NCBI GenBank assembly: GCA_903893925.1
Contig: CAITOC010000047.1
Coordinates: 1 to 48,492, forward strand
Length of the DNA stretch: 48,492 bases
Source of the DNA: Candidatus Moraniibacteriota bacterium
Lineage (GTDB): Bacteria; Patescibacteriota; Minisyncoccia; Moranbacterales; UBA1568
Direction: 5' to 3'
Part shown: piece by piece, positions 5,389 through 48,390 of the stretch
Layout of the letters: every line of letters starts with the position of its first letter
How positions within the stretch are numbered: the first letter of the stretch is position 1
The notes under the pieces: model-generated
Seen by the model: only the letters and a program-made list of their open reading frames with translations
Told to the model about the DNA's origin: nothing
Databases searched by the model: none
Translations under genes and position numbers: made by a program

Positions 5389-5420
5389 GAGTTTGTTTAT
5401 TTACACGGAGAAATCATGTT

Positions 5421-6374: not shown

Positions 6375-6423
6375 TGAGCTCTTGACTTCTCTGCTCCCCG
6401 TTATCTGTTAATTGTTATCTGCT

Positions 6424-9300: not shown

Positions 9301-9359
9301 AACTGAATCGTTGCCGAAGGCTAAACCTTCGGAGATATCGAGTATCGATTGTATTCGGT
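9301..9359. repeat. Hairpin between convergent genes, possibly a degenerate relative of the ~105-bp element
   Basis: aactgaatc (shared with the element's left arm), hairpin ccgaagg-ctaaa-ccttcgg at 9314-9332, then gatat...attcggt. Confidence 0.4.
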
Positions 9360-10582: not shown

Positions 10583-10611
10583 GGGGTTGTCGTATGTGGA
10601 TCGTTTACATT

Positions 10612-13975: not shown

Positions 13976-13979
13976 ACGT

Positions 13980-16918: not shown

Positions 16919-17016
16919 AACGAGCACTTGGGGAACATCACTTCGATTTTTTGTTTGCGATCTGGAAAAATGGTTCAGGGCGTTTATCGTATAAAGAAGA
17001 TGTAAAGCCGACTGCT

Positions 17017-24201: not shown

Positions 24202-24212
24202 ACGATACAGTT

Positions 24213-25844: not shown

Positions 25845-25870
25845 TGACGATTGTTCGCGAGTGAGCTTCT

Positions 25871-25974
25871 TATACCAAATTAACTGAATCACTGTTACGT
25901 TCAGGAGTTCGACTCCCTCTAGGGAGTCGAACTCCTCTAGTAGCGATATACAAAAAATTACGTTATTTCGGTAT
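25871..25974 (+). repeat. Copy C of the ~105-bp element (full length)
   Basis: tataccaaattaactgaatcactgttacgttc, then aggagttcgactccctctagggagtcgaactcct, then ctagtagcgatatac...gttatttcggtat. Imperfect terminal inverted repeats ataccaaattaac / gttatttcggtat. Confidence 0.88.
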
Positions 25975-26080
25975 TATGTCGAAAATAACTTGATCGTTGA
26001 ACATCGCTGCCGGAGAAGTTCGCCCCGAAAATGCTGGAGTAAACTCCCGATGTGACAGTGTTTTCGTCAACGTGGTATTA
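25974..26080 (-). repeat. Copy D (diverged, inverted, abutting copy C)
   Basis: Reverse complement taataccacgttgacgaaaacactgtcacatcgggagtttactcc...ggggcgaacttctccggcagcgatgttcaacgatcaagttattttcgacataa aligns end to end with copy F. Confidence 0.7.
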
Positions 26081-26099
26081 TACTGGTCCCAAGGTATGA

Positions 26100-29386: not shown

Positions 29387-31037
29387 ACATTCTCCGTCGG
29401 GACGCCTTGGCAGTCTCTGTGATTGGGTCCGGACGGTTCCGAAATTCATATGTATCCTCATCGGTATCGTGGCGGTCGGGATATTCCTCCGTGCCTACCA
29501 TTTCCACGACTGGCTACGATTCAATGCGGATCAGTCGCGTGATGCCGGAGTGGCGAGCGACTCTGTCCAGGGGACCGGCGCCTATCCCTTGCTTGGTCCG
29601 AAAGCCGGCGGAACCGAATTTAAGCTCGGCGGAGCGTTCTATTCGTTGCAGATCCTTTCCGCGCAGGTATTCGGAAACAGCCCCGACAAGATGGCCTATC
29701 CGGATCTGTTCGCGTCCATCGCGACGATCCCGCTCCTCTTCCTCCTCCTTCGTCGGGTATTCCGACAGCCGGTAGCGCTTCTTTTGACGGCCATTTTGTC
29801 CGTGAGCGTCTTCGCGATCAAATACGCCCGGTTTGCCTGGAATCCGAATTCCGGGCCATTTTATTCCATACTGTTCCTATATGCACTTCTCCTATTGGCC
29901 GAGGAACAGACAAAGCGGAGATGGCTCTGGGCGATAGTCGCCGGTGTCGGTCTTGGTATCGGTGTACAGTTACACACCCTGCTTCTGATCATCATGCCGG
30001 TCACCGTTTTTGGTTTTTTCATATTTATCGGGCGAAAGCGACCAACACTCTGGCGACAGGCCGGCATCGTCTTGCTCGTCGCGCTTGCGTTGAATACGGG
30101 ACAGATCGTGGAGATGAGACAGACGAACGGTTCGAATATCAAGGCGTTTTTCGGTGGAACCGCGAGTAAGACGGCCAAGGGACACTCTATTCTTGGGAAC
30201 GTTCTTGACGATGCGACTTGTCAGATACAAGGAGACACATTCATCGTGAGCGGACTCGGCAATGACGACCAGTGCGGTTCAGTCAGCATCTCCGACACGT
30301 ATCAGAAGACCAAAGGTATCGCGGGGAAACTCGCCTTCATGGCCGGGTTATTTTTGTCGGCGGTTTTCACCGTTGGTGGGGTGTGGCTATGGATAGTGGC
30401 TCTCAAGAACACGACCGAACCGAGGAGGAAACTCGCACTGCAACTCACCTTGTGGTACGCTCTGGTCGGATTCGTCCTACTCATCCCGCTTGCAAAAGAG
30501 ATCTCGCTTCGATTCTATCTGGCGATGCTCTTCGTCCCGTTTGTCTTGCTCGGACTCTGGGCGGAGGCCGTCATTTCGTGGGCGAAAGATCACCATACCT
30601 ATGCGTATATCGCTCTCGGTATCGTTACGCTCGTTTTTGTAGGGACGAACCTTTCTGCCGTCTCGATCGCGTTTTCCGATCATTCCGGCAGGAAACAGAT
30701 CGTCGGTTCGACCGATGCGGAGATCACCCTTGGGGAAGTCGAGGGGATGGCGAAGTATATAACAGAGCATTTCCAATCGGGTCAGACGATTTATGTCCGG
30801 GGAAAGCAGACCTATCTCTTCAAGTACCTGAAATCGATCGAATACGTCACTCTGAAGAGCGGTGTCGTCTTGAAGCCGTATTCCAAGAACATGATACCGT
30901 CAAAGGATGACCAGACCGTCCTCATCGCGAATGCCATAAACAAAGGCAAGCTTACGAAGTCGATGGCGGAGGCGTATGATCCCATCGATATCCGGATCTT
31001 CGGACGGTTCTCAATCGAACAAATCGTGCTTAAATAA
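29370..31037 (+). CDS. ArnT/PMT-like GT-C, paralog 8
   Basis: LRAYHFHDWLRFNADQSRD, AYPD, YARFAWNPN, QLH and LRFY. Confidence 0.8.
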   Translation: MSTDTEHSPSGRLGSLCDWVRTVPKFICILIGIVAVGIFLRAYHFHDWLRFNADQSRDAGVASDSVQGTGAYPLLGPKAGGTEFKLGGAFYSLQILSAQVFGNSPDKMAYPDLFASIATIPLLFLLLRRVFRQPVALLLTAILSVSVFAIKYARFAWNPNSGPFYSILFLYALLLLAEEQTKRRWLWAIVAGVGLGIGVQLHTLLLIIMPVTVFGFFIFIGRKRPTLWRQAGIVLLVALALNTGQIVEMRQTNGSNIKAFFGGTASKTAKGHSILGNVLDDATCQIQGDTFIVSGLGNDDQCGSVSISDTYQKTKGIAGKLAFMAGLFLSAVFTVGGVWLWIVALKNTTEPRRKLALQLTLWYALVGFVLLIPLAKEISLRFYLAMLFVPFVLLGLWAEAVISWAKDHHTYAYIALGIVTLVFVGTNLSAVSIAFSDHSGRKQIVGSTDAEITLGEVEGMAKYITEHFQSGQTIYVRGKQTYLFKYLKSIEYVTLKSGVVLKPYSKNMIPSKDDQTVLIANAINKGKLTKSMAEAYDPIDIRIFGRFSIEQIVLK

Positions 31038-33088: not shown

Positions 33089-34561
33089 TTATTTCGTTGG
33101 TTTTGTCGGGAGTAGCTTCAAGAGGGGATCGATGTCCGCGTTTTCCAATGCGCCGAAGAGCTTGAGAATACCGAAGTGAAGGAGAAAGAGAACGGCACCG
33201 GAAACGATGAAGGAGAATGATCCTTCTGGGAGCAATCGGGCGAGCAAGACGAGGACTGCCGAGGAGATGAAGGAAACGACCCAGAGCTTGAGCGGGATGT
33301 GGACCTTGAAATGCCGGTCGGTGAAGATGAGGATACCGGTCATCAGGATGAACGTGACGATGGTCGTGGCGATGGCCGAGCCGACAATGCCGAAGGGCGG
33401 GATGAGGGCATAGTTAAGTGCTGCGGAAGCGACGAGACCGACGCCGGAGACGTACATTGGGATCATGACCAGTCCCGCGCCGGAAACGGCAAAAGCGAGG
33501 ACATAGAATACCGTCAAAAACCCGTTACCGATGGCGAAAACGCTCATTGAGGCGGTCGCACCAGCATAGGCGTGTCCGTAGAAGAGCGAGATGATCGGGC
33601 CGGAATAGGCTGACAGGAGTGTAACGGTGGGAAAGAGGACAAGCGCAAGCAGGCGAAGGGATTTGTTCACGAGCGAGCGGGTTTCGGCTTCGTCGCGATT
33701 CGACGATGTATTGGATATCGCGGGGAGCAAGATAATTGTCAGGGCATAGAAGAGATAATAGGGGATGTTCCCGACGGTGATTACCGCATTGTAGAGTCCG
33801 GTCCAGTAATCATTTCGTAGAAGCGCTTTGACGAGGAAAAGGTCGAGCGAGGTGATGAGTTGATAGAAGAGCATGAAGAGCGTGAGTGGCCAGGCATAGT
33901 CGAGCAGTTTTTTCGTCGGGAAATCCTGCGATTCTCTTTTTTTGGTCGCCGGGAAATACTTTCCGGTCCAGATGAGGTCGAGAATGACGGCGACTCCGAA
34001 GACGACGAGCGGAGAGACGATGTAGCCGGCGACCGCTCCCTTGACCCCGAAATACCAGGCCAGGAGTATGATGAAGACCATCCGGGTGACCGAGCGGGTC
34101 GTTTTGAGAGCGGCCTGCAAACGGAAGAAATGCAGTCCGGTAAAGTAGGAAAAATAAAACGAGGCGGCGGCGAACGAAGGGATGATGAGCGAGGAAAGTC
34201 GGAAGAGCGGAGTGAGTGTCGGGTCGCCTAGGAGTGAGGCGATGAATGGGGAAGCCAGGAAAAAAAGCACCGTGACCACTGCCATGATACCCGTTTGGAG
34301 AATGACCGATGTGCGCTTGATGCCCCTGATCCGGTCGGGATGTGTCTCGAAAATCTCACTCAGATATTTCGACATGGCGGTCGGGATGCCATTACCGATG
34401 AGGATGATGACAGTCGTCGTCAGGTTCACGATGAGGCCGTATCTCCCGTAGTCGGCGGGTCCGAGTAATCGGCCCACGACGGAGTGGATGAAATATCCCG
34501 AAGCGTTGAAAATAATCTCGGAAACGGTGAGCCAGATAAGGGCGCGTGAGAAATTTTTCAT
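33089..34561 (-). CDS. wzx: Oligosaccharide flippase (Wzx/MOP superfamily)
   Basis: RLLGPADYGRY, GIPTAMSKYLSE, D..LVK, GLYNA, LN.ALIPPFGIVGSAIAT. About 14 TMs. Confidence 0.88.
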   Translation of the reverse strand: MKNFSRALIWLTVSEIIFNASGYFIHSVVGRLLGPADYGRYGLIVNLTTTVIILIGNGIPTAMSKYLSEIFETHPDRIRGIKRTSVILQTGIMAVVTVLFFLASPFIASLLGDPTLTPLFRLSSLIIPSFAAASFYFSYFTGLHFFRLQAALKTTRSVTRMVFIILLAWYFGVKGAVAGYIVSPLVVFGVAVILDLIWTGKYFPATKKRESQDFPTKKLLDYAWPLTLFMLFYQLITSLDLFLVKALLRNDYWTGLYNAVITVGNIPYYLFYALTIILLPAISNTSSNRDEAETRSLVNKSLRLLALVLFPTVTLLSAYSGPIISLFYGHAYAGATASMSVFAIGNGFLTVFYVLAFAVSGAGLVMIPMYVSGVGLVASAALNYALIPPFGIVGSAIATTIVTFILMTGILIFTDRHFKVHIPLKLWVVSFISSAVLVLLARLLPEGSFSFIVSGAVLFLLHFGILKLFGALENADIDPLLKLLPTKPTK

Positions 34562-34576
34562 GACGGTGAAAAAAAG

Positions 34577-35173
34577 TTACGTATCTATGACCTTTCGAAT
34601 GAGCGATACGACCTCGTTTTTTGATCCGTCCGCATCGATCCGTATGAGATTGAATCGCTCAGTGTCCGTAAGGAAGAGGGACCGTTTCTTCTTTGTATAT
34701 TCCAAACCTTGTTCCGGTATACGTTCCCGTTTCGTGATTTCTTCGGGAGAGACATCGAGAAAGAACGCGAAATCGGGTCGAACGATGGTCCTGTCGAGAC
34801 TACGGAAAGCCTTTGAACCGGAAAGATACTCGATATTCACGACCGAATCGAAAAAATATCGATCCGAGAGGAGGATATCGATCCCGTATCCTTTCAGGAT
34901 ATGTTTATACATCCTGAATGCGATAACGTCGACAGCGAGCGTGAGTTTGCGCAGACGGATCGAAAACGACGAGGCTGAAGTGACCGCCTTTTCTTTGCCG
35001 GGCTTGAAGTCACGGCGTCCGCGAAGAACTCGCCATGTCTTGTGAATGAGGGAGTGTTCGAGTGCGTGAAAGTAAGCGACCTTCTTGCCACTTTTTACGA
35101 AGGAGTCACGGAGGAGGGCAGTCTGTGTGGATTTCCCGGACCCGTCGGTGCCGGAAAGAGTTATGAAAATCAT
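34577..35173 (-). CDS. Thymidylate-kinase-fold P-loop kinase (atypical)
   Basis: ITLSGTDGSGKSTQ, SDRYFFDS and PDFAFFLDVSPE. Lacks the REPG motif of housekeeping Tmk. Confidence 0.8.
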   Translation of the reverse strand: MIFITLSGTDGSGKSTQTALLRDSFVKSGKKVAYFHALEHSLIHKTWRVLRGRRDFKPGKEKAVTSASSFSIRLRKLTLAVDVIAFRMYKHILKGYGIDILLSDRYFFDSVVNIEYLSGSKAFRSLDRTIVRPDFAFFLDVSPEEITKRERIPEQGLEYTKKKRSLFLTDTERFNLIRIDADGSKNEVVSLIRKVIDT

Positions 35174-35408: not shown

Positions 35409-36983
35409 ATGAATCGTTTGACGAGATATACCGACAACCTCTTTTTCGTATTTCTTTTCATCCTGCCGTTTCAAACGGTGTATTTGTGGCGTGAGCCGAT
35501 CATGAATGGTGCGAAGTGGCAGTATGGCACAATCGGTATATATCTGTCTTCCTTGATTGTAGCCGTTGCGATCATGCTCGGTGCCATTGTGAAAGCGAAC
35601 GCTTCAAAAAAGAAAACCATCATCGATATGATGACGACTCTGTGGCATGAACGGAAATCGGACATGTTCCTTCTCCTCTTCGTTCTCTGGTCGGGCTTGT
35701 CGATACTGTGGGCGCAGGACACGGCTTTAGCCCTATATACCTTCGTAAAGATCCTTCTTGCAGCGGATGTGTTCGTCATGACGCGAGACCTGGTTCGAAG
35801 AGGGAAGATGAAACGGATCGTCGTCGTACTTTTCGTTGCGGCCGCGATCCAGTCCGTCATCGGTATCGGACAGTTCCTGACGCAGGATAGCTTCTCCTCG
35901 AAGGTTCTCGGCATGAGCGCGTACGAATCGTGGCAGGCCGGAACATCAGTCTTGAAAAATGAAAGCGGGCGGTTCCTGCGTGCGTATGGTTCCTTTTCGC
36001 ATCCGAACGTATACGGATTATTCCTTGCAGTCGTTCTTATTCTTGTGGTATCGACAATTGGCGAAAAATCCCTCTTGTTCCCCCTTTTTCAAAGAGGGAA
36101 ACTGCTCAATGTCGTTCCATCTTCAAAGGCACGATTCCTTTTTATTAAAAATTGGAAGACGTCCTGTCTCCCATTTAAAAATGGGGTACCGAGTCTTCGA
36201 GGGGACTGCGTGTCGCCAATAGCTTTAGCGGTGGTGCAGGGATTTTGTAGTAGGACTGTTACATTTTTTGGTATCCTTATCATTCTTCTAGGTCTCATCA
36301 TGTCCTTTTCCCGTCTGGCATGGGGAGGGTTCGCACTCGGATTCATCTTTCTTGCGTGGCGATCAATTTCGGATATATATTTTTGTCATCCCGGGCTTGA
36401 CCCGGGATCCACGAAAAAAAATATTCTGGATTCCGGCTCAAAGGCCGGAATGACAGGGAGATATCCGCTTGCCATCTTCGCGACCATCGTCATTTCGACG
36501 GTGATTTTTACCGGCATATTGCACGAGACGGTTTTCCCGCGGTTCGACGGGGGTGTCGTCGATCGGGACGGTTCGGTCGTCGATCGGATGTCGACCTACC
36601 GTGACGCTTTCCAAATCGTCCGTGCTCATCCGCTCCTCGGAGTCGGTGCGGGAAACGAGACCGCAGAACTGATCCGTATCTCTCCTCATCGTCCAATATG
36701 GGACATTCAGCCGTCTCATGATGTTCCGCTCCTCATCCTTACCGAACTCGGTATACCTGGCCTCGTCCTCGCTTTGTGTTTTTTCTGGTTTTCTCTATTT
36801 CCGATAGTGAAAACAAAAACTCCCTTAGGCGATGGGAGGGCACCAGTCATCGTGATACTTCTCGTCCTCATTCCAAGCCTGCTCCTCGATCATTTCCTCT
36901 GGGACTCGAATTTCGGACTTATGTTCGTATTCATTCTCCTCGGACTGACATTCGATACAAATTATCGCTTAAAAAGGCCATAA
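35409..36983 (+). CDS. O-antigen ligase / Wzy_C (WaaL-like) membrane protein carrying in-frame repeat insertions
   Basis: GIGQF, RAYGSFSHPN, SFSR.AW, R...Y..A..I...HPLLGVG.GN, H.VPLLILTELGIPG and DH. Confidence 0.85.
   Translation: MNRLTRYTDNLFFVFLFILPFQTVYLWREPIMNGAKWQYGTIGIYLSSLIVAVAIMLGAIVKANASKKKTIIDMMTTLWHERKSDMFLLLFVLWSGLSILWAQDTALALYTFVKILLAADVFVMTRDLVRRGKMKRIVVVLFVAAAIQSVIGIGQFLTQDSFSSKVLGMSAYESWQAGTSVLKNESGRFLRAYGSFSHPNVYGLFLAVVLILVVSTIGEKSLLFPLFQRGKLLNVVPSSKARFLFIKNWKTSCLPFKNGVPSLRGDCVSPIALAVVQGFCSRTVTFFGILIILLGLIMSFSRLAWGGFALGFIFLAWRSISDIYFCHPGLDPGSTKKNILDSGSKAGMTGRYPLAIFATIVISTVIFTGILHETVFPRFDGGVVDRDGSVVDRMSTYRDAFQIVRAHPLLGVGAGNETAELIRISPHRPIWDIQPSHDVPLLILTELGIPGLVLALCFFWFSLFPIVKTKTPLGDGRAPVIVILLVLIPSLLLDHFLWDSNFGLMFVFILLGLTFDTNYRLKRP
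36384..36455. repeat. 72-bp palindromic element inserted in frame in the WaaL-like gene
   Basis: tgtcatcccgggcttgacccgggatcc...ggattccggctcaaaggccggaatgaca, with inverted ends and two hairpins. Exactly 24 codons. Confidence 0.8.
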
Positions 36984-37104: not shown

Positions 37105-37650
37105 ATGGAAACTGACAGAGTCGCAGCTTCGCTTCTTGATTATAAGGAAACGAGCTATATTGCACCGGTTGCATTGACATTCATTCCAGAGAGAGTCACG
37201 TCACATATTCCAATTGATTTTTATCAAACCCTTCATGATAATCATCTCTGCTTTCCTTTCCAGGATCGGTTTGATCTTGATGCATTGAGGATTCCGATAC
37301 TATCGACTACGGAACGTCCCTACGTTTGGTTTTTTCTCAAGAAGGTCCCGATGGTCAATGATATTCGTTTTATATTGCCAAAAGTTTTACGACAGAAATG
37401 CGTTTCACCTCTTGGAGATATAGAAGACCTTCTCAATTTGTATCCATATGGAGAGCCGGGATTTTTTACGCTGGATTATGGTAAAATAAAAATCTGGTTT
37501 TTTTACGAAGGAGTTGGCGGTGAGATCTTTGAAGCGTATTTCAGTTGGGATTATATTCTTCATCGTTGGCGAATTGATGATAGTCGGCAAAATCACAGCC
37601 CATTTCGGTTCAACGTAGGGAATTATATTCTTTCACCATGTTATGTGTGA
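37105..37650 (+). CDS. Hypothetical protein (AT-rich gene)
   Basis: 181-aa ORF with AGGAG RBS, promoter and terminator. No motif recognised. Confidence 0.7.
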   Translation: METDRVAASLLDYKETSYIAPVALTFIPERVTSHIPIDFYQTLHDNHLCFPFQDRFDLDALRIPILSTTERPYVWFFLKKVPMVNDIRFILPKVLRQKCVSPLGDIEDLLNLYPYGEPGFFTLDYGKIKIWFFYEGVGGEIFEAYFSWDYILHRWRIDDSRQNHSPFRFNVGNYILSPCYV

Positions 37651-37664
37651 ATCGACGCATACCG

Positions 37665-37708
37665 AAAAAAAGCCCTTTGACTGCGAGTCAGAGGGCCTTT
37701 TTCTTTTT
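37665..37708. terminator. Bidirectional intrinsic terminator
   Basis: aaaaaaa-gccctttgact-gcg-agtcagagggc-ctttttcttttt between convergent genes. Confidence 0.8.
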
Positions 37709-37791: not shown

Positions 37792-39297
37792 CTAGTACAT
37801 GATCACCGCCACCGGCTGCAGCTTGGCGACGGGATGGACGATATCATTACGTACGACGCTTTCGATGACGGCGTCGGCGTTCTTGTAGTGGGCGCTGTCC
37901 TGTTCGATGACCTTGGATGACCGGCCGTTGTAGAGGTGCACGCCACGGGTCGAAAGTTTGGCATCGAGCTCCTCACGGCTTGTGGGCACGACGGATTCGG
38001 CTGCCACCTTCGGCTTGCCAGCCCCATGGTTGCATGAGAAGAACGAGGATTCATTGCCGTCGGTACCCACGCAGAGGTACCCATCGGTCGACATGGAGGT
38101 CGGGATGAAAGCCGGCTCGCCGGTCTCACGGAAGGTTGGATGATCGGCCATTCGGGTCGGTCCGTACGCGCGGCTCGTGCCATTGCGATGGATCCAGGCG
38201 CTCTTGCCGTAGTGCTCCTCCTCGGAGACGAGGATATGCGGCATGTCATAGACAAGTTCGAAACCGGGATCACGGCCGAGGACCTCTTTGATCGTTTCGG
38301 ACACATTGTGTGCGATGATGGCACGGTTGGCGTGGGCGAAGTTCGAGCAGGCATTTCGAGCTTCCATATACATCTTCCCATCCTCTCCGTCGCCATCGAA
38401 GGTGAAGAGTTCTTCCTTGGCACCGAAATCGAAGTCTTTGATCTTTTGGGCGATGCCGTCGATGACATGCTGGCGCTTGGTGAAGAATGTCATCCGGCCG
38501 AGCCAGGCCATGAAGGCCTGTGAAAGGTGCTCACGTTTCTTGGCGGTATACATATACATCGTATACTGGCCGAGAATGCCGGAGCCGCAATGGACCATAA
38601 ACACATATTGGCCCTTCCGTATGCCAAGTTTCTCGGCAAGTACCGGATCCGGCAGATCGGACACTTTCATGAGGTCGAGGAAATGGTTGCCGGCGGCACC
38701 GAGGATACCGGAACGGAACTTTGCGAAGAACAGGAAGAGTCGCGGGATAACCTCGTAGATTTTTTGTTTGGAAACCTCTTCGCCGAAAAAGTTTCCGCGA
38801 TCAAGGGAGTTCTCTTTCTCGTACTTCGTCTCGATGCCGAGGTACTCGACAGCCGCGCCGATGCCTTTGCGACAAATATCGACGATGACATGATAGGGGA
38901 GTATCGTGCCGAGGAGTGCCTTGGTAGGGACTTTATTGACGAGCGCCTTGAAGAGTTTGTCGATATCTTCTGGTGAAAGATCGTCCTCGGTCATATTTGT
39001 CCGGACGAGACGCATGCCACAGGCGGGATCGGTATCATTCACTTGCGGGAGGATGTGCTTTTCGGTAGCGACCGTGGTCCCGGTCGCGTTTTTACGGCCA
39101 GGTTTGGAATGGACATCGGCCATCGCGGCGATATGACGGAACAGACCGCTGTTGCTTGCGACGCTTTCCAGTTGTGAAAGCGTGCTGTCTGCTGGTAAGA
39201 GCTCGTCTTGGACATGAAAGACGACCGGCACCTTCATGCGGTCGGTCTTCATCTCGCTTTTGAAATCGGTGAGTTTCGTGAATTTTTCCTTAGACAT
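37792..39297 (-). CDS. rtcB: RtcB-family protein, divergent
   Basis: MADVH, DPACG, GNHF, VHCGS, PH, HRNG, FSCNHGAG and HYK. Start set at MSKEKF. Confidence 0.85.
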   Translation of the reverse strand: MSKEKFTKLTDFKSEMKTDRMKVPVVFHVQDELLPADSTLSQLESVASNSGLFRHIAAMADVHSKPGRKNATGTTVATEKHILPQVNDTDPACGMRLVRTNMTEDDLSPEDIDKLFKALVNKVPTKALLGTILPYHVIVDICRKGIGAAVEYLGIETKYEKENSLDRGNFFGEEVSKQKIYEVIPRLFLFFAKFRSGILGAAGNHFLDLMKVSDLPDPVLAEKLGIRKGQYVFMVHCGSGILGQYTMYMYTAKKREHLSQAFMAWLGRMTFFTKRQHVIDGIAQKIKDFDFGAKEELFTFDGDGEDGKMYMEARNACSNFAHANRAIIAHNVSETIKEVLGRDPGFELVYDMPHILVSEEEHYGKSAWIHRNGTSRAYGPTRMADHPTFRETGEPAFIPTSMSTDGYLCVGTDGNESSFFSCNHGAGKPKVAAESVVPTSREELDAKLSTRGVHLYNGRSSKVIEQDSAHYKNADAVIESVVRNDIVHPVAKLQPVAVIMY

Positions 39298-39419: not shown

Positions 39420-40160
39420 TCACGTCCCTTTGGTTGAAAAGTATTTTCGGTATTCTTTCAGGAATGATTCCAAAGTGACTTTGAAATCCATTCGTTGTTG
39501 TCGATCAAGATGAAGTATATTTTTAGATGACCTCAAAGCAAGTGCCTCTTCAAGAGAAGATATGCCTTTGAAATCCGGATGGTACGACTGTAACAGCTCC
39601 GGAAACAAATTTTTATTTCCGGTGACGCCTCCGCTTAGCAGAATGGCACCACTCATATTGATAATATAGTTGCACCAGTCCTGCGGTTCACGGACGAAGA
39701 TATTTTTTACCGGGTCCGGATCGGTGGCATGAGCATACTCCGCCCGCAATTCGGATCGAAGGTCTCTCTTGAGCAGCTCATGGACCTCAGGTATATCGTC
39801 GGCGATATTTTTTCCGTAGAGCAGACGGGCACGAAGCTTCAAATCAAGGAGATCAAGATTGCCGATAAATCGAGTCGCTCGGTCATTGCCAAGAATCCTG
39901 TTTTGCAGATCCGCGATCGGTCGGACTGTGCATTTGAGAGCGACGGAGTACTTTGCAGAAAGCTTTTCGAAGTTTATATTTTTCGGCGTTCGTGTCGGAT
40001 CCGCAACAAATGCGAGCAGATCGTAGTCGCTGTATCCGTCTACGATGTCATAGGTCGCATAGCTACCGACGACAAAGAGCGATACGAGAGCGTCACTGAA
40101 AGCAGACCGTACAGATCCGATAATCTCATCTTCCATCTGGCCAATCAATTCTTTGTCCAC
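39420..40160 (-). CDS. Pol-beta-superfamily nucleotidyltransferase-domain protein
   Basis: LVSLFVVGSYA...SDYDLL (GS..DxD), LLYG and a helical C-terminal domain. GTG start. Confidence 0.72.
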   Translation of the reverse strand: MDKELIGQMEDEIIGSVRSAFSDALVSLFVVGSYATYDIVDGYSDYDLLAFVADPTRTPKNINFEKLSAKYSVALKCTVRPIADLQNRILGNDRATRFIGNLDLLDLKLRARLLYGKNIADDIPEVHELLKRDLRSELRAEYAHATDPDPVKNIFVREPQDWCNYIINMSGAILLSGGVTGNKNLFPELLQSYHPDFKGISSLEEALALRSSKNILHLDRQQRMDFKVTLESFLKEYRKYFSTKGT

Positions 40161-40202: not shown

Positions 40203-40472
40203 CTAGTCCAAAATGCTCGTCTTGGCGACAATGCCGTAGAGGGTGTCGAGCTCGTCGGTAAGCGTATTGATGTCCGCAGCAGTACCTTCAACTATGACGG
40301 TAATGAGTCCGCCGTAGGGCGTGATACCGGCGCGTTCCAGGTGTACACCGAGCCGAGCGATGATGCGGTCGCCGTGGCGAGTCAGGATGTCATTAACTTC
40401 CTTGGCATGAGTTCCTCGTTCCTTCACGAGGATCGATACCGTCGCGATGTGGACCTTTTGTTCTTCTATCAT
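40203..40472 (-). CDS. TM1266-family (putative iron-only hydrogenase regulator, ACT-like) small protein
   Basis: IATVSILV.ER...KEVNDIL..HG..IIARLG...GLITVIVEG....INTL...L pattern. Confidence 0.72.
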   Translation of the reverse strand: MIEEQKVHIATVSILVKERGTHAKEVNDILTRHGDRIIARLGVHLERAGITPYGGLITVIVEGTAADINTLTDELDTLYGIVAKTSILD

Positions 40473-41073: not shown

Positions 41074-42195
41074 TTATATGATTTCATATACTTCCGCATA
41101 GCGTTGCGCCGTGATGCGCAGGTCGAAGTTTCGTTCGACGTATGTTCGCGCGGAACGACCCATCTCGGCGAGCTTCTCGCGATCTTTTTCAAGACCGTCG
41201 ACCGCGGCGAGGAACGAGTCACCGTCTCCTCGGGGGACCGTGACGGAAATCGAATCATTCGAGAACTCGCTGAAGAGAGGGATGTCCGAGAGAATGACCG
41301 GCTTGCCGCAGGCGTAGGCCTCGATGATGATGAGTGGCACGTCGAACTTGCCCTTCATGTCGACGACCGGGAACGCGATGACATCGGAGAGGTTGTACAC
41401 GCCGGGCATGTCCGCGAACGTGTCGGAGCAGTAGAATCGGTCCTCAAGTCCGGCTTCCGCGAACTTTCGCATGACGTCTCGTTTTTTCTCCTTGTCGGAC
41501 TCGTTCTTGAGACGGACGGCCCAAAAAAACCTGACGGGCGAATCGGGATAATCGCGATGATAGCGGATAATCGCGTCGGCTAGCATATCGGTCGCACCGA
41601 GTCGGGCATATTCGCCGATATAGGATACGATGAAATCACCCTCCTTGAAATCGAACCGTTTCAGCAAGGCGGGATCTTTCGGTTGCGGACTGAAATGGGT
41701 CAGATCGATACCGGGATAGATGCGTTCCACACCGGAAAAGCCCATCGTCTCGAGTCGGGCCTTCGATCGGTCGGTATAGGTGACGATCCGGTCTGCGAAC
41801 AACATCTTTTTCAGATCCGTCTCGGAATAGAGATCCTCACGCAAGGTAGCGACGGTCTGTATGGTTTTGCCACGCGTCGGCTTGAGAAATGATTTTATCG
41901 CGAAGGCATTGAGTTTCGCCGGGGTGAAGAGATAGTGCGTGATATCGAAGCGACCGCGGAATCGGAACAGGGCGAAGAAGAGCTGTATTTTGGACAGCCA
42001 ATTGAAATCTCCGGAACTGAAAACCGGTTCCTGTACGATCGATTCCGAGAGGTCGTCCAGATGGCCATGAGTCAAGATGGAGATCGGGAGCGTGGGAAGT
42101 GACTTGGCCAGGAAATAGGCGAAAATTTTGGATGCTTCGTCCCATGGGGGACAGAGCGGTCTGGTCACGAGAAGGATTCTTTTCTTGTTGATCAT
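41074..42195 (-). CDS. GT4 family glycosyltransferase
   Basis: ILLVTRP..PPWDEAS, IYPGID and FDVPLIIIEAYACGKPVILSD. Confidence 0.88.
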   Translation of the reverse strand: MINKKRILLVTRPLCPPWDEASKIFAYFLAKSLPTLPISILTHGHLDDLSESIVQEPVFSSGDFNWLSKIQLFFALFRFRGRFDITHYLFTPAKLNAFAIKSFLKPTRGKTIQTVATLREDLYSETDLKKMLFADRIVTYTDRSKARLETMGFSGVERIYPGIDLTHFSPQPKDPALLKRFDFKEGDFIVSYIGEYARLGATDMLADAIIRYHRDYPDSPVRFFWAVRLKNESDKEKKRDVMRKFAEAGLEDRFYCSDTFADMPGVYNLSDVIAFPVVDMKGKFDVPLIIIEAYACGKPVILSDIPLFSEFSNDSISVTVPRGDGDSFLAAVDGLEKDREKLAEMGRSARTYVERNFDLRITAQRYAEVYEII

Positions 42196-42275
42196 AGGAA
42201 ATTCATTCAAATCGGTTTTTCAGCTCTTTCATGTTCCGTATTTCGTCTTTTGCAATTCTCAATTCTTATTTCCAT

Positions 42276-42701
42276 CTATCGCTCCCGATAAATCTCTTTT
42301 TTCGTGCCGTCATCGGCGGAGACGGAAATGGTCGTGCGGCCTGGATCGGCCGGAATGGCCAATCGTACCGTTTCGCTTTGTCCTTTGCTAAGCGAGATGG
42401 GTGCAGTATTGAGCTCGGTGTCGTCGTGGGAAACGGTATAGGTGAATCGCGTAATGGAGGAGTGGTTGTCAATCGTGAAATCGGATGATGATGGATCTCG
42501 GGTCTCGAAGGAAAGCGTCCACCAGTTCTTCCCGAGATTCGGATCGAGGTCACGGTCTATCCGGACAAAAAGCACTCCGGAAGCGATAGCGAAGAAAAAG
42601 AGTACTATCAAAACCGTCGGGATATCTCCCGTAGCGCGTCTTTGTATGCCGGCAAGCGGTCGCTCGGATTTTTTTTCGACGGTCTTAGCGGTTTCGTTCA
42701 T
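42276..42701 (-). CDS. Single-TM protein with beta-rich (Ig-like, DUF1616-like) outer domain
   Basis: Start MNETAK overlaps the upstream stop. TM segment followed by WTLSF...FTIDNH....FTYTV. The DUF1616 resemblance is judged by eye. Confidence 0.6.
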   Translation of the reverse strand: MNETAKTVEKKSERPLAGIQRRATGDIPTVLIVLFFFAIASGVLFVRIDRDLDPNLGKNWWTLSFETRDPSSSDFTIDNHSSITRFTYTVSHDDTELNTAPISLSKGQSETVRLAIPADPGRTTISVSADDGTKKEIYRER

Positions 42702-44664
42702 AGATTTGGATGGTCGTTCCGGAATAAATGCGCGAGAAGTCGTGGGAACTCTCGAATTGTGCGGCGTCGAAGGCCGGGTTGACCGCCAGGAGATTGACAC
42801 CGACTTCGTCGAAACACGCGCGTCCTCCGTCAAGGTTTGGCATGGAAATCATCCGAAGCGTGCACTGTTCACGAGGATTCGTCTCGTCCACGTAGCGCTT
42901 GAACAGTCCGCGGGAAAGCGGATAGGCATATCCGCGCATGAAAGAGAGCTTCATCCAGGAATCCGCAGCGAGGTAGTTATGGTCTTTCAAGAAGAGATCG
43001 CCTGGTTCGGTCCGGTCGGCGAGGTATCGCGAGGCGGTGAAGACCTCGACAGCATCCTGTGCTTTCCCGGTGGAATTCGGAAGGGATGACTGGTTGTCCT
43101 GCGAACCGTTCCATGTCGCGAAAGAGAAAAGGATAAGTGCGGCGAAGAGGAAGATATTTCCTGGGAGGAACACGCTGCCAGGCTTTCCATCGGTCTTGCG
43201 GAATATGAGTGGGAACGTGGCGAGGAAGAGGCCTGCAAGGACAGAAAACGGAAAGGAAAGATAAGTCCCGATGCGGTCCGACGGAATATTGAGAAAGAGC
43301 CAGGTCGGACGGAGCGCCATGACGAGCAGAATGCCACCCCATCCGAGAACGAACGGGAAAGCAGGGGAACGACGTATCGGACGGATCGAAACGGCAATCA
43401 ACAGTGCAGCGAGGCCGAGTGCCATACGGGCGGGGCCTGTCGAGGAGGATGTTTGCAGGAAGGAGAGTCCGGTCCGGGTCGCTTTGACTGCGGTACCGAC
43501 GGCGGTCGTCACGGCGTTCGTCTCGATATAGGTCGGTTTGGCGACAAGAAAGAAAAACGCCGCGGCGAATCCGAGCGCGAGGAGCGGATATGGGGAAAGG
43601 ACGAGCCTTCCGATCTTTTGGGCCAGGCCCGGAAGCTGTCGGAAAGAAATCGCGATGAGTGAAAGGAATATGCCGGCGATGATGAAGACGAGAACAAATG
43701 TCGAGAGGTGATGCGTATAGGCGAGCGTGAGTGAGATGAGGATACCGAGTCCGAGGAAACGCGAGTCTTCTTCTATGAATGCGCGGAGGAGGGAAAGGAG
43801 AACGAGCGGAATCATCAGGTTTCCGAAGAGATTTCCGACAACGCCACCCGAGACGAATTTCGCTTCGGGAGAAGAAAGCGCAAACAGCGGTCCGGCAAAG
43901 AACAGCACGGCGAGGCCTACGGACACCGGAGAAATCGGTTCTTTGGGAAACAGGAACGAGCCAAGTCGGACGGCGAGGATGAAGGTCGAGATGACGGAGA
44001 GGATATTTATCAGGAGGAGGAAGGAGATCGGGAACCCCGAAATAAACGACACGCCGGAAAGGGTAGCGATCGCGGCGAAGGGAAGATGCTCGCCGATGAT
44101 GAAGTCGGAAATGGGCTCGGGACCCGAAAGGGCGGACTGTCCGTTTCCGACATCGATGATTTCGCGCTTGGAATAATCAGGAAGACGGCCCGTATCGGTG
44201 ATGACCTTGGACCAGTACATGTGATGTCCGAGATCGGTGGCCGTCGGGAGACCGATGTCCGCAAGGTAGAGGGTCTTGAGAAAAATCGTCAAGCCGATCA
44301 GTAGGAGAAACAACGCCCGCTCAGTCGGTGAGAATCGGATCTCTCTGTGACCGACAGCAACGGATGCCTTTTCTCTCGGGCGTCTCCATGTCTCTGGTGC
44401 GTAGCGTCCGTATGCCTGTCGAAGCAGTACGGATGTGATTGGAATGGCGAAGAATGATACGAAAAGGAACGGCGCGGAGAGTATCACGCCGGCCTTTCCG
44501 AGCGCGATCATCGAGAAGTCGAGCGATCCGATGCCGAGTACGAACGAGAACACGAACCGTTCGAGCGATAAAACCTCGAATGATCGACCGAATAATCCCC
44601 GAAACAGGATGTATCCGGAGAGAGGAATGCAACTTGCGATGAGAAGAAAGAGGAGAAACATCAT
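42685..44664 (-). CDS. Large multi-pass membrane protein, putative GT-C (DUF6541-like)
   Basis: ERF..S..LG, PTATDLGHHMYWSKVI..TG, YTHHLS and DR. About 14 TMs plus a C-terminal soluble domain. Confidence 0.6.
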   Translation of the reverse strand: MMFLLFLLIASCIPLSGYILFRGLFGRSFEVLSLERFVFSFVLGIGSLDFSMIALGKAGVILSAPFLFVSFFAIPITSVLLRQAYGRYAPETWRRPREKASVAVGHREIRFSPTERALFLLLIGLTIFLKTLYLADIGLPTATDLGHHMYWSKVITDTGRLPDYSKREIIDVGNGQSALSGPEPISDFIIGEHLPFAAIATLSGVSFISGFPISFLLLINILSVISTFILAVRLGSFLFPKEPISPVSVGLAVLFFAGPLFALSSPEAKFVSGGVVGNLFGNLMIPLVLLSLLRAFIEEDSRFLGLGILISLTLAYTHHLSTFVLVFIIAGIFLSLIAISFRQLPGLAQKIGRLVLSPYPLLALGFAAAFFFLVAKPTYIETNAVTTAVGTAVKATRTGLSFLQTSSSTGPARMALGLAALLIAVSIRPIRRSPAFPFVLGWGGILLVMALRPTWLFLNIPSDRIGTYLSFPFSVLAGLFLATFPLIFRKTDGKPGSVFLPGNIFLFAALILFSFATWNGSQDNQSSLPNSTGKAQDAVEVFTASRYLADRTEPGDLFLKDHNYLAADSWMKLSFMRGYAYPLSRGLFKRYVDETNPREQCTLRMISMPNLDGGRACFDEVGVNLLAVNPAFDAAQFESSHDFSRIYSGTTIQIYERNR

Positions 44665-44704: not shown

Positions 44705-45832
44705 TCAGCGGGAGAGGTCGGCTTCGAGGGTTTCGACGTAGCGGTCCGAGAGAGTGCTCCACAGATAGTGTTTTTGGGCGAAATCCTTCGCTTTGACGCC
44801 TTCAGTCGTACGAAGAGACGGATTTCCGATCATCCGGACAATCTCGTCGACAAAGGCATCTGCATTTCCGGGATCAAGAAGGAAACCGTTTTCTCCCGGC
44901 TGTATCGCCTCGGTCAGTCCCTCGAGGTCGGAAGCGATGACAGAAAGTCCGCAGGCGTTCGCTTCGATCACATTGATACCGAATCCTTCCATCGTGCCGG
45001 GGACCTTGATGTTCGGCGACACGGCCAGGTCTGCATTGTTGAGGAGCGTGAGGATGTCTGGTCGGGAAAGATTTTTCAGGAGCCTCACATTTCCTTCGAG
45101 ACCGAGTTCCGAGACGGCTCGTTCGCAGAGCGGGAAGTAATCTTCATCGCCAGCGGTGTTGGCGGAGACGACCGCTCCGGCTGCGACGAAAAAAACTTCG
45201 TCCGGCAGACGTGGCACGACGTTTCGGATGAACCATTCGACGCCCTTATGCTTCACATATCGGCCTATCCGAACGATGACGAAGTGCTTTGACGATTCGA
45301 TGCCGAGGAGCGCGTCGAGCGCGACACGGTCGTGCGGGACGACAAGTGCGTCCGGATCGATACCGTTTTGGATGACCGTTATGCGTTCCGGGTCGATGCC
45401 GGCGAAAACGGCTTCTTGTTTCGTGAATGAACTGACGGCGAAAATCCGATCCATCGATTTCAGGGAAGGTAGGTTCAGTCCGGCATAGAGACGAGAAAGG
45501 AAGCTATGCTTCGATCCGTATGTGAGGTCGAGACCGTGGACGACGCAGGCGGTCAGTATTTTGGGACGGAACCATGAGAGGACGAATGCGATCGGCGCCA
45601 GCACTCCGTCTCCGATGAGTATGACGTCGTTCCGATACAGTCCAAAGAGTGCTTTGATGAATGCATACGGGAGGAAAAGTGGAAGAAATCCCTTGCCACG
45701 ACGGTTCGCGATGAGTGTCAGGTCGGTCTTCTTGCCGAGCCAGAACGCGAGGTCGCGATTGTGATTCTCGATGCCACCTATGATCGGCGGGTAGGCGCGC
45801 GAGATGAAGAGTATTCTCATAATTTCGCTCAC
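44705..45832 (-). CDS. GT4 family glycosyltransferase (PimB-like)
   Basis: RAYPPIIGGIE, VHGLD, AVSSFT, NGID, KHKG and EGFGINVIEA. Confidence 0.92.
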   Translation of the reverse strand: MSEIMRILFISRAYPPIIGGIENHNRDLAFWLGKKTDLTLIANRRGKGFLPLFLPYAFIKALFGLYRNDVILIGDGVLAPIAFVLSWFRPKILTACVVHGLDLTYGSKHSFLSRLYAGLNLPSLKSMDRIFAVSSFTKQEAVFAGIDPERITVIQNGIDPDALVVPHDRVALDALLGIESSKHFVIVRIGRYVKHKGVEWFIRNVVPRLPDEVFFVAAGAVVSANTAGDEDYFPLCERAVSELGLEGNVRLLKNLSRPDILTLLNNADLAVSPNIKVPGTMEGFGINVIEANACGLSVIASDLEGLTEAIQPGENGFLLDPGNADAFVDEIVRMIGNPSLRTTEGVKAKDFAQKHYLWSTLSDRYVETLEADLSR

Positions 45833-46815
45833 TTTCCTTTGTAGAGTCGCTTTTTGGTGAGGTACAGCTGTTCCTCAACCAGAAGTCTGCTGGATCTCAC
45901 CATATCGGCGAGCAACGCGAAGACGACGAACTGTAAGCCGACGACAAAAAAAATCGCGGAAAAGGAGAGGTAATTCCGATACGGAGATATTTTGAAATCC
46001 CGAAAATAAAAGAAAAGGAAGATGACAAAAAGGATGATTGAAAGACCGATCATGAACAGTCCTGGAATGCCGAAAAATTTCATGGGTCGGACATCGCGAA
46101 CCGCCTTCAGTATTATCTTGAAACCGTTCGATACGAATTTCGAAACCGACTTCGTGATTTTCGGTTTCCGGTCCGAATGATAGGTGACATTGATCGGAAT
46201 CCAGTGGAGCTTGAGATTCTTCCCTATCGCGTCGATGATCGTTTCCTGCGTATACGTGAAATTCACATTGACGAGATTGAGCCGTAAGAGCGTCTCGCGA
46301 CTATGCGCACGAAATCCGCAAGTGAGATCGTTGGTTTTCGTATTCAGAAAGAAACCGACCATCGAAGCGGCAAACCGATTCAGGAAACTGCGAATCCACG
46401 GAATGTCTTTCGCGGTGATGTTTCCGAAGCGATTTGCTATGGTCATATCACATGTTCCTTCGACCACCGGCTGAAGAAGTTCCGGAATATCCTTCGGGTC
46501 GAACTGCCCGTCGGCATCGATGTTAACCATGAAATCCGCGCCGTTCTCCAAGGAACTTTCGACGGCACGTTTGAATGCGTATGCGAGCTTCCTATTTTGC
46601 TTGTAAGAAATGATGATATCGGCACCAGCTTCCTTGGCACGGATTGCAGTCGAATCGGTAGAGCCGTCATCAACGACCTGTATCAGCTTTTCAGTAAGAA
46701 TATTTCCCGATCCGTTCCGATAAAAATCGGCCTCGAAACTTTTTCTTATCCGACCGATGGTTTCTGCAATCTTTTCTTCCTCGTTGTAGGCGGGGATATT
46801 TACGATGAGTTTCAT
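45829..46815 (-). CDS. GT2 polyprenol-phosphate glycosyltransferase (DPM1-like) with two C-terminal TMs
   Basis: IPAYNEE, VDDGSTD, IDADGQF, DLTCGFRA, FTYTQETII and RPMKFFG. Confidence 0.9.
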   Translation of the reverse strand: MKLIVNIPAYNEEEKIAETIGRIRKSFEADFYRNGSGNILTEKLIQVVDDGSTDSTAIRAKEAGADIIISYKQNRKLAYAFKRAVESSLENGADFMVNIDADGQFDPKDIPELLQPVVEGTCDMTIANRFGNITAKDIPWIRSFLNRFAASMVGFFLNTKTNDLTCGFRAHSRETLLRLNLVNVNFTYTQETIIDAIGKNLKLHWIPINVTYHSDRKPKITKSVSKFVSNGFKIILKAVRDVRPMKFFGIPGLFMIGLSIILFVIFLFFYFRDFKISPYRNYLSFSAIFFVVGLQFVVFALLADMVRSSRLLVEEQLYLTKKRLYKGK

Positions 46816-47085: not shown

Positions 47086-48390
47086 TTATCGTCCGATTCC
47101 CTTGTATGCGATGCCGGCCTCTGTTATGGCTTGGCGGTCGAAAGTGTTCTGTCCGTCGATAAATACCCTGACTCCATGCTTTGCGAGCAGCTCTGGCGTA
47201 ATCGAATCCAGGAACTCGCGATGTGCGGTGACAAGGATGACCGCGTCGGAACGATCGAGTATCGCCTCGAGCGTCTTTTCCGAAGAGAGGCGTAAGATAT
47301 GCGGGTCGAAGGTCGCGATATCGGCGCCGTATCGTTCCAGTTCCGCAATGACATCTTCTGCGGGGGATTCCCGAAGATCGTCCACGTTCGGCTTGTAGGC
47401 GAGTCCGAGTACACCGACCTTGGTCCCGTTGAGCGGTAGACGGATCGAGTTCAGCTCGTCTTGCAACAGTTCGACCGCATAGGCCGGCATGGAGTTATTG
47501 ATTTCGCGAGCGATTTTGAGGAACCGGTGGTCGAAACCGGACTGTTTGGCCCGCTCGATGAGATAGTACGGGTCGACCGGGATGCAGTGTCCGCCTACGC
47601 CACACGACGGATAGTGCGCCATAAACGCGAACGGCTTGGTAGCCGCACCGCGAATCACGTCTTTCACGTCGATACCGAGCTTGTCGAACGAACGTGCGAG
47701 TTCATTGACGAATGCGATGTTGATGTCACGAAAAGAGTTCTCGACAATCTTGACTGCCTCGGCTTCCCGTATGGACTTCATCGGACGAATCTCTCCATCG
47801 ACGATACTTCCGTAGAAGGCGAGTGCCCGCTCCAGCCCCTCGGGACTCGTCGAACCGACGACGCGCGGGATGTTCTTGACCGACCACTTCGTGTCCCCGG
47901 GATTGATCCGTTCGGGACAATGTGCCAGATGGATATCCTGGCCTACGACGAAGCCGGCTTTTTCAAGTATCGGCTTGACCACTTCCTCGGACACTCCCGG
48001 ATTTACGGTCGATTCCAAAACAACGAGAGCACCCTTTTTCGCATACTTGGCGACAAGGTCGGTCGCTCCTTTGACCGGAGCGAGGTCGGGGAAATGCACG
48101 TCGTCGACGGGTGTCGGTACACAGATAAGGATGATATCGGCATCGGACAGTATTGACGGGTTGGTCGAGGCCGTGAACGGATACTTCGGCAGTTCTTCCG
48201 ACAAACCCGCATCCTCGATCGGGGACTTCCCATCGTTGATGAGAGTCACTTTGCGCTCATCGAGATCGAGTCCTGTGACGGAATATCCTCGCTCCACGGC
48301 TCGCACTGCGATCGGGAGGCCGACATAACCGAGACCGATAACGCACACGGATCGATCTTTCCCGGAAACCTTATTCATTGTTTCGGCCAT
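47086..48390 (-). CDS. UDP-N-acetylhexosamine 6-dehydrogenase (WecC/WbpA/TviB family)
   Basis: GLGYVGLP, ICVPTP, ESTVNPG, PERINPG, ENSFRDINIAFVNE, GVGGHCIPVDP and GLAYK..VDDLRESP. Confidence 0.92.
   Translation of the reverse strand: MAETMNKVSGKDRSVCVIGLGYVGLPIAVRAVERGYSVTGLDLDERKVTLINDGKSPIEDAGLSEELPKYPFTASTNPSILSDADIILICVPTPVDDVHFPDLAPVKGATDLVAKYAKKGALVVLESTVNPGVSEEVVKPILEKAGFVVGQDIHLAHCPERINPGDTKWSVKNIPRVVGSTSPEGLERALAFYGSIVDGEIRPMKSIREAEAVKIVENSFRDINIAFVNELARSFDKLGIDVKDVIRGAATKPFAFMAHYPSCGVGGHCIPVDPYYLIERAKQSGFDHRFLKIAREINNSMPAYAVELLQDELNSIRLPLNGTKVGVLGLAYKPNVDDLRESPAEDVIAELERYGADIATFDPHILRLSSEKTLEAILDRSDAVILVTAHREFLDSITPELLAKHGVRVFIDGQNTFDRQAITEAGIAYKGIGR

Follow-up and report, generated by a model that had tools for sequence, protein, structure and literature searches.

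Canonical RtcB ligases, including PH1602, E. coli RtcB and human RTCB, share a set of Mn ligands (D, C, H, H and H) and a histidine that carries GMP. In the present study, we analyzed an RtcB-like gene (37792..39297, minus strand) on contig CAITOC010000047.1 of Candidatus Moraniibacteriota bacterium; the window refers throughout to the whole stretch of 48,492 nt in which this gene lies. The encoded protein belonged to the same Pfam family as the canonical ligases, aligned with them over its full length at the level of the fold, and retained both the metal ligands and the GMP-carrying histidine. It differed from them in the replacement of R238, R190, Q194, H242, N330, K351, R408, R412, K480 and E206, in a Lys at the position of the invariant Gly69, and in the location of its gene, which lay in a glycan operon of a genome in which archease, RtcA and RtcR were not found. 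Because the published RNA-strand and guanine contacts were replaced, the enzyme has very probably been repurposed away from RNA. We estimated a probability of roughly 55% that it applies histidine–nucleoside monophosphate (His-NMP) chemistry to a non-nucleic-acid phosphomonoester in envelope-glycan synthesis.

Previous studies have reported that E. coli RtcB caps DNA to DNA3'pp5'G (PMC8051266, PMC10630183) and that ligation and capping vary among the RtcB paralogues of M. xanthus (PMC10630183). Capping shows that RtcB enzymes can halt once NMP has been passed to a phosphomonoester, as an activation-only role would need, but the capping substrates are still polynucleotide ends. M. xanthus RtcB3 is the subject of a paper that, by its title, reportedly deals with 5'-phosphate capping. 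In teichoic-acid and phosphoglycan synthesis, a TagD-type cytidylyltransferase and a TagF-type polymerase use R-O-P and a nucleoside triphosphate (NTP) to form R-O-PP-N and PPi, after which attack by R'-OH yields R-O-P-O-R' and NMP. The net chemistry of this pathway, as in CDP-glycerol synthesis followed by TagF-type transfer, is the same as that of route A proposed below, which makes it a functional analogy; however, the folds are unrelated, two enzymes are used rather than one, and there is no covalent His-NMP intermediate. The RtcB2-PrfH and RtcB-archease modules resemble the present locus in that an RtcB-family gene has a fixed genomic partner, but their partners are directed to RNA or the ribosome, whereas the partners here are a GT4 glycosyltransferase, a thymidylate kinase (Tmk)-like kinase and a flippase. 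A full-text literature search, with subscription-only papers outside its reach, returned no paper joining RtcB to glycan clusters, to a glycosyltransferase plus thymidylate kinase, or to polysaccharide plus flippase. For RtcB together with the candidate phyla radiation (CPR) or Patescibacteria, the full-text literature gave only unrelated matches, as judged by title and abstract.

Catalytic core and substrate contacts

The open reading frame (ORF) of the RtcB-like gene was intact and began with ATG; an alternative GTG 36 nt upstream also lay in the open frame. The protein matched the Pfam RtcB profile PF01139 with 251.9 bits (cut-off 27) over profile positions 1-424 of 426. Two NCBIfam models gave partial matches below their cut-offs, PRK09588 with 115.4 bits (cut-off 407) and TIGR03073 release_rtcB with 81.5 bits (cut-off 271.8). 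Identity to canonical RtcBs was 28-30%, and the alignment was interrupted at a clade-specific insertion around residues 250-295.

The residue comparison was based on P. horikoshii RtcB (Pho; 1uc2), to which the protein was aligned both singly and within a 25-sequence profile; the two alignments agreed, and 43 RtcB cluster representatives served as the canonical comparison set. The positions kept in the RtcB-like protein were D90, C93, N204, H205, H236, H354 and H424, corresponding to Pho D95, C98, N202, H203, H234, H329 and H404. Accordingly, the Mn1 ligands C93, H236 and H354, plus H205 (Pho Cys98, His234, His329 and His203), were all present, as was the Mn2 ligand Asp95 of the DxNCG motif, here D90-P-A-C93. 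The nucleotidyl-accepting histidine, Pho His404, was found as H424 within NHGAGK and was invariant in all 18 orthologues described below. In the wider sample of 100 representatives (43 canonical and 57 of the K65-type branch defined below), the equivalents of H203, H234 and H329 were invariant, and that of C98 occurred in 42 canonical and 52 K65-type sequences. A preliminary description of this DNA, made from the letters alone, had listed the D, DxxC, NH, H and H ligands and the HGAG histidine as conserved, and the Pho alignment bore this out.

The same alignment confirmed every motif change that had been listed there. The canonical HSGSRG was HCGSGI (R238 to G240), HN was HI (N330 to I355), HRKG was HRNG (K351 to N372), HGAGRxxSR was HGAGKPKVA (R408 to K428 and R412 to A432), and the C-terminal KG was MY (K480 to M500). 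Further replacements, beyond those listed, were E206 to D208, R190 to F191, Q194 to R195 and H242 to Q244. The replaced positions were near-invariant in the canonical set, with R238, N330, K351, R408 and R412 each present in 43 of 43 sequences, E206 in 42 and K480 in 41, and varied widely among the 57 K65-type representatives. Since the positions were near-invariant in the 43 canonical RtcBs and the substituted state was invariant in 18 of 18 orthologues, the pattern was not attributable to chance.

Lys351, Arg408 and Arg412 are reportedly essential in E. coli RtcB, although a literature search aimed at these three residues returned nothing on RtcB. For the other positions, functions have been described: the structure of PhoRtcB with an oligonucleotide shows contacts of Arg238, Arg190, Gln194 and His242 to the 5'-OH strand (PMC8051266), sealing by the E. 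coli RtcB R189A mutant was 200-fold slower (PMC8051266), Lys480 and Glu206 read guanine, and Asn330 contacts the gamma-phosphate (PMC9745838). In the RtcB-like protein, the four strand contacts were G240, F191, R195 and Q244, and Asn202 (N204) alone was kept; the guanine contacts were M500 and D208, and the gamma-phosphate contact was I355.

The preliminary description had also pointed to two amphipathic-looking segments and had suggested that the enzyme was membrane-associated. Both segments were found, PRLFLFFAKFR at 185-195 and SQAFMAWLGRMTFF at 259-272, but their helical hydrophobic moments were unremarkable (rank 193 among 491 windows and rank 285 among 488). No transmembrane segment was predicted in the protein (maximum 19-residue Kyte-Doolittle mean 1.23). 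These two results did not support the segments as amphipathic membrane anchors and gave no indication of membrane association. The stretch at 185-195 occupied the place of the basic helix bearing Pho R186, K188, R190 and Q194; because it replaces this helix, the LFLFFA-type stretch is more likely part of an altered acceptor site than a membrane anchor.

Place within the RtcB superfamily

To the earlier view that the basic residues of the protein were eroded, the orthologues gave a different answer. All 18 Moranbacteria orthologues, whose identity to the query (the RtcB-like protein of the window) was 67-86%, had the substituted motifs without variation, and these proteins had gained new invariant basic residues, namely K65, R68 and K69 in MADVHSKPGRKNATGTT and K253-K254-R255 in YTAKKREH. 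Because the changed motifs and the new basic residues were both invariant, the substitutions, as read from this alignment, are a fixed derived state and not erosion. The mean column identity of the 18-orthologue alignment was 78%, and all metal ligands and the histidine nucleophile were kept in all 18. Across relatives, the RtcB-like gene was better conserved than every neighbor; for example, it was 67% identical at locus L014, where the neighbors ranged from 44% to 58%.

Relatives were sought among 1.84 billion cluster representatives. The full-length relatives formed a graded series (56, 46, 43, 38% identity and so on), and canonical RtcBs ranked behind them and aligned in two pieces. A tree was built from 108 of the best 150 matches, 400-560 aa in length; the 42 left out were fragments, intein-bearing forms and fusions. 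The rows were grouped by the residue at the column of Pho Gly69, which gave 43 rows with Gly and 58 with Lys (query included), and 8 rows with neither were excluded. We coined the name "K65-type" for the group in which Lys replaces this invariant Gly after the DxH motif. The Gly69 rows and the Lys rows lay on opposite sides of one branch with an SH-like support of 100 (FastTree). As the sample was biased toward relatives of the query, it says nothing on the relative abundance of K65-type and canonical proteins. These results suggested that the RtcB-like protein is soluble and probably catalytically active, and that it belongs to a deep branch of the RtcB superfamily with no characterised member.

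The query fell in a 10-row subclade (support 100) marked by D, S, T or M at E206, K at R408, and M, T or S at K480. Because both guanine-reading residues were changed in this subclade, the comparison weakly suggests that it perhaps uses a nucleotide different from GTP.

Several features of the branch were observed in passing. All 57 K65-type representatives had Lys at the Gly69 position, the defining residue, and most were without the Asp95 ligand: an Asp three residues ahead of the Cys was found in 3 of 58 K65-type sequences versus 42 of 43 canonical ones. That the lysine takes the place of the second metal ion is speculation. In the group sister to the clade of the query (P0124, P0127, P0128, P0133, P0135 and P0132), NHGAGK was replaced by NHEIGK and NHFL by SHFL, and P0132 was without the H203 and H404 equivalents; parts of this sister branch may, from these motifs, be altered in chemistry again or inactive. 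Among plasmids, a K65-type representative matched 11 records, none above 33% identity; where annotated, these were RtcB-family or intein-containing RtcB, and they added no new gene context. A search of the ESM Atlas gave generic RtcB clusters only.

Linkage to glycan genes

The gene neighborhood was compared across 107 loci, comprising 27 genome loci with an RtcB-like protein 64-94% identical to the query and 80 metagenome loci (42-52%) retrieved with a 7-sequence alignment. The loci shared a block of NDP-sugar dehydrogenase (NDP, nucleoside diphosphate), GT2, GT4, a 659-aa polytopic membrane protein and, in most of them, an unlabelled small ORF of about 120 aa, followed by a GT4 glycosyltransferase here called GT4n, the RtcB-like gene, the Tmk-like kinase and a MOP flippase. 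A consistent association of the subfamily with glycan genes had been named beforehand as a test, and it was observed: among the 84 loci with at least 1.2 kb upstream, GT4n lay co-oriented upstream of the RtcB-like gene in 82. The spacing between the two genes was 150 nt or less in 59 loci, and 9 pairs overlapped. The Tmk-like gene was located downstream in 77 of the 93 loci with at least 800 nt on that side (within 150 nt in 40), and the flippase in 57 of 73 informative loci. The link to glycan genes is strong. The slots flanking the RtcB-like gene were insertion-prone and held differing small genes across relatives (L072, L075, L104-L145), with 23S-IVP, GIY-YIG, PD-(D/E)XK, MazG, SMR, Eco57I-type methylase and metallophosphoesterase among the contents elsewhere.

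The link also extended beyond one lineage. In a phylum sample of 401 genomes, proteins that shared 56% identity or more with the query were confined to the window's order, where 5 of 5 genomes had them, with one RtcB each. No RtcB match was found in 353 genomes, and an RNA ligase is therefore dispensable in the phylum. Among the 43 other genomes with an RtcB match, 42 matches were weak and came mostly as two partial alignments; the Pfam check within this group covered G188, G119 and the second copy of G250, which scored 540-597 bits. G250, which belongs to another family and class, carried a K65-type gene 27% identical to the query in the order GT4, RtcB-like, Tmk-like within a large glycan cluster, and elsewhere in its genome a canonical RtcB (597 bits) and an archease. 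This RtcB-like gene type was found in 1 of the 16 genomes of the class of G250. In the G250 glycan cluster, an LPG_synthase_TM gene stood directly after the Tmk-like gene (L060, 11917-12858). The canonical RtcB of G250 (L154, G250:C24) was flanked by genes for a 768-aa protein of no family and a BNR/sortilin-repeat protein (71-2377 and 4287-6638), and the archease of this genome lay on a separate contig, C13, and not beside it. The canonical RtcBs of G188 and G119 adjoined archease (loci L061 and L062).

Two natural fusions were found. P0271 (886 aa) joined GT4n to an RtcB-like domain, with 43% identity to the GT4n of the window over residues 12-378 and 48% identity to the query in the respective parts. 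In P0179 (885 aa), an HprK-related P-loop kinase-like domain, which scored 40.5 bits on TIGR04352 (far below the cut-off), was fused to a K65-type RtcB-like domain; a search for relatives of this fusion recovered P0179 alone. A complex prediction for the RtcB-like protein with GT4n gave a score of 0.00, which counts neither for nor against an interaction.

The partner kinase departed from thymidylate kinase in its sequence. Its TIGR00041 score was 40.6 bits (cut-off 83.25), and its Pfam match of 45 bits covered the C-terminal half and the P-loop only, compared with 144 bits for the true Tmk of the genome, which lay on contig C54 and of which the kinase is a paralogue. Walker A (GTDGSGKST) and DRY were conserved, but the nucleotide-monophosphate-binding region was replaced; neither the equivalog-level profile nor the TMP-binding region supported assignment as a thymidylate kinase. 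Tmk-like matches with E<=1e-13 occurred in exactly 6 of the 401 genomes, those with a K65-type RtcB-like gene, and four weaker matches (E 1e-7 to 1e-8) were in genomes without one.

The corresponding genes of the window were as follows.

47086..48390, minus strand: NDP-sugar dehydrogenase, 434 aa; first gene of the co-oriented run
45829..46815, minus strand: GT2 polyprenyl-phosphate glycosyltransferase-like protein, 328 aa; AglJ/PpgS-like, with two C-terminal hydrophobic segments
44705..45832, minus strand: second GT4 glycosyltransferase, 375 aa
42685..44664, minus strand: polytopic membrane protein, 659 aa, with at least 12 hydrophobic segments and a C-terminal soluble part; conserved, no family match
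42276..42833, minus strand: small protein, no family assigned, containing one hydrophobic segment; true start probably inside this ORF
41074..42210, minus strand: GT4 glycosyltransferase GT4n, 378 aa; conserved upstream partner, orthologue fused to an RtcB-like domain in P0271
40475..41065, minus strand: Nudix hydrolase, 196 aa; variable slot
40203..40472, minus strand: TM1266/NikR-C-like small ACT-type protein, 89 aa; variable slot
39420..40160, minus strand: pol-beta-type nucleotidyltransferase-like protein, 246 aa; variable slot, weak Pfam match below cut-off
37792..39297, minus strand: RtcB-like enzyme (K65-type), 501 aa; retains the metal ligands and the nucleotidyl-histidine H424 but has other residues at the contacts to the RNA strand and guanine
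37672..37696, no strand: GC-rich hairpin with an 11-bp stem and T-run; terminator-like, between convergent genes
37105..37650, plus strand: ORF of 181 aa; convergent with the RtcB-like gene
35409..36983, plus strand: Wzy_C/O-antigen-ligase-like membrane protein; an insertion that, here and in close genomes, parts the RtcB-like gene from the Tmk-like gene
34577..35173, minus strand: Tmk-like P-loop kinase, 198 aa; Walker A GTDGSGKST and DRY kept, NMP-binding region replaced
33089..34561, minus strand: MOP/Wzx-type flippase, 490 aa; its place immediately behind the Tmk-like gene is conserved

In most relatives, the slot of 42276..42833 was held by an unlabelled ORF of about 120 aa, a correspondence by position only. 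The block was split in the window on both sides of the RtcB-like gene. Upstream, the nucleotidyltransferase-like, TM1266-like and Nudix genes lay between it and GT4n; downstream, the opposite-strand Wzy-like gene and the 181-aa ORF separated it from the Tmk-like gene. The preliminary description had placed the gene at the end of a co-oriented run starting at the sugar dehydrogenase. The run was real, but its apparent end was a local rearrangement in this and close genomes.

The genome assembly comprised 1.18 Mb in 88 contigs and was 98% complete. The gene at 37792..39297 was its only RtcB-family gene, so that the check for a second, canonical rtcB proposed earlier yielded none. The absence of rtcA, rtcR and archease, first noted for the vicinity of the gene, held for the whole genome: none of these usual partners of canonical RtcB was found. 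Nor was archease found in the four other Moranbacterales genomes, which brings the number covered to five.

Other parts of the window and genome gave separate observations. Ten genes for large membrane proteins (539-734 aa) lay at 16951-31037 (plus strand) and 12239-15824 (minus strand), nine with PMT/PMT_2 (GT-C) matches; eight were co-oriented on the plus strand, including the one without a match (18729-20933), and two were on the minus strand. This set is an unusually large paralogue expansion of lipid-sugar-dependent glycosyltransferases. At 5421-9257 (plus strand), a glutamine-dependent asparagine synthase gene lay between two LPG_synthase_TM-type membrane protein genes, and at 9359-12228 (minus strand), an ALG10/DIE2-family match (eukaryote-type GT-C) adjoined a GH28 polygalacturonase-like beta-helix protein. 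ARAGORN in intron mode predicted only 26 tRNAs in the genome, with long putative introns in tRNA-Ala (92 nt) and tRNA-Asn (627 nt), both outside the window; these two are possibly group I introns or false calls.

Proposed role and alternative explanations

In the proposed mechanism, the two opening steps of RtcB catalysis would be retained: His424 would be self-nucleotidylylated from an NTP, and the NMP would then pass to a phosphomonoester, yielding R-O-PP-N. In place of an RNA 3'-phosphate, the enzyme would accept a phosphorylated envelope-glycan intermediate, for which a sugar-1-phosphate, polyprenyl phosphate and a phospho-sugar carried by a lipid-linked glycan are the candidates. The Tmk-like P-loop kinase would probably make the phosphomonoester, and the upstream GT4 would act just before or after the RtcB-like enzyme. 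In route A, a sugar or lipid hydroxyl would attack R-O-PP-N to form a phosphodiester and release NMP; in route B, R-O-PP-N would serve the GT4 as its NDP-activated donor. Export of the product would fall to the flippase, and the nucleotide used in the Moranbacteria subclade might be other than GTP. Phosphodiester formation on a sugar or lipid is plausible. That the whole K65-type branch acts outside nucleic acids, by His-NMP activation and possibly ligation of kinase-made sugar or lipid phosphomonoesters, is a tentative extension to which we gave slightly less than even odds. The preliminary description had proposed a repurposed, membrane-associated enzyme. The replaced RNA and guanine contacts, the glycan linkage, the triad at 27% identity and the fusion all support repurposing, while the membrane association was not supported.

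A number of observations weigh against a role in glycan synthesis. The gene was the sole RtcB of its genome, so it may have a housekeeping RNA role, and every characterised RtcB acts on RNA or DNA (PMC10630183). The 122-nt gap upstream of the gene holds a weak promoter-like site and a weak hairpin, and because of these it may be transcribed on its own in the window. The linkage was incomplete, as 16 of 93 loci showed no Tmk-like gene on the downstream side. Four loci, the P0122-like group, had the gene for cysteinyl-tRNA synthetase (CysRS) downstream, and at L067 the RtcB-like gene was flanked by a release factor/transglycosylase and by CysRS, neither GT4n nor a Tmk-like gene being found within 6 kb. 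The 107 loci are for the most part kin and not independent, with two clearly separate lineages plus the fusions, and each fusion came from one contig (5 member sequences for P0271 and 6 for P0179). The G250-type protein keeps R238, R408, E206 and K480, as judged via its closest representative P0153 (54% identical), and the glycan link is therefore not bound to the exact substitutions listed in the preliminary description. Finally, the genome has four conventional sugar-1-phosphate nucleotidyltransferase genes; therefore no pathway gap requires a new activating enzyme, and the idea that the RtcB-like protein substitutes for a missing NDP-sugar pyrophosphorylase was weakened.

Part of this evidence would be accommodated if the protein were still a nucleic-acid end-joining or capping enzyme, serving RNA repair or lineage-specific RNA processing with a remodelled RNA surface, and owed its place in the glycan operon to an inherited gene order of no functional significance. 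The full catalytic core and the nucleic-acid substrates of all characterised members (PMC10630183) fit this explanation, as do its standing as the only RtcB of the genome, the neighboring CysRS and release factor in some relatives, and the possible promoter of its own in the window. In addition, the new invariant K65, R68, K69 and K253-R255 could rebuild a phosphate-backbone site. However, GT4n and the RtcB-like gene stay paired down to 42% identity, their fusion exists, and the triad recurs at 27% identity in G250, which keeps a separate canonical RtcB and archease. R238 and R190, two published contacts to the 5'-OH strand, have been lost, the genome yielded no archease, RtcA or RtcR, and the 353 of 401 phylum genomes without an RtcB match argue in the same direction. 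We therefore regard a continuing nucleic-acid function as unlikely, though it is the most serious of the competitors. It is improbable that the Tmk-like and RtcB-like pair merely supplies nucleotides, by NMP recycling or as an unusual dinucleoside or NDP compound for glycosyltransferases, with no glycan modification. Such a role would suit a thymidylate-kinase-like partner with intact P-loop and DRY, the changed guanine-reading residues, which hint at another nucleotide, the Nudix, MazG and metallophosphoesterase genes in the variable slots beside the pair, and the differences in ligation and capping among M. xanthus paralogues (PMC10630183). It fits poorly with the replaced NMP-binding region of the kinase, with the normal Tmk and four normal sugar-1-phosphate nucleotidyltransferase genes of the genome, and with slots that also hold unrelated insertions (23S rRNA IVP, GIY-YIG, PD-(D/E)XK and a restriction-type methylase). 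A third possibility, that the protein has no catalytic activity and serves the glycosyltransferase as a scaffold or regulator, would be in line with the loss of catalytic residues in some distant K65-type members, such as P0132 without the H203 and H404 equivalents, and with the lack of the Asp95 ligand in most of the branch. This is very improbable for the query, since it and all 18 orthologues keep every metal ligand and the histidine nucleophile and, at 78% mean column identity, are better conserved than any neighboring gene.

If the RtcB-like enzyme does act on an envelope-glycan phosphomonoester, it would represent the first non-nucleic-acid role for the RtcB fold and a new means by which a single enzyme forms phosphodiester or NDP-activated linkages of bacterial envelope glycans. 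The pipeline label "tRNA-splicing ligase RtcB" on such genes should be treated with caution. The kinase, the RtcB-like enzyme and the GT4 constitute a three-protein system open to direct testing, and the proposed role, if true, would inform how ultra-small CPR bacteria build their surfaces, a poorly understood matter.

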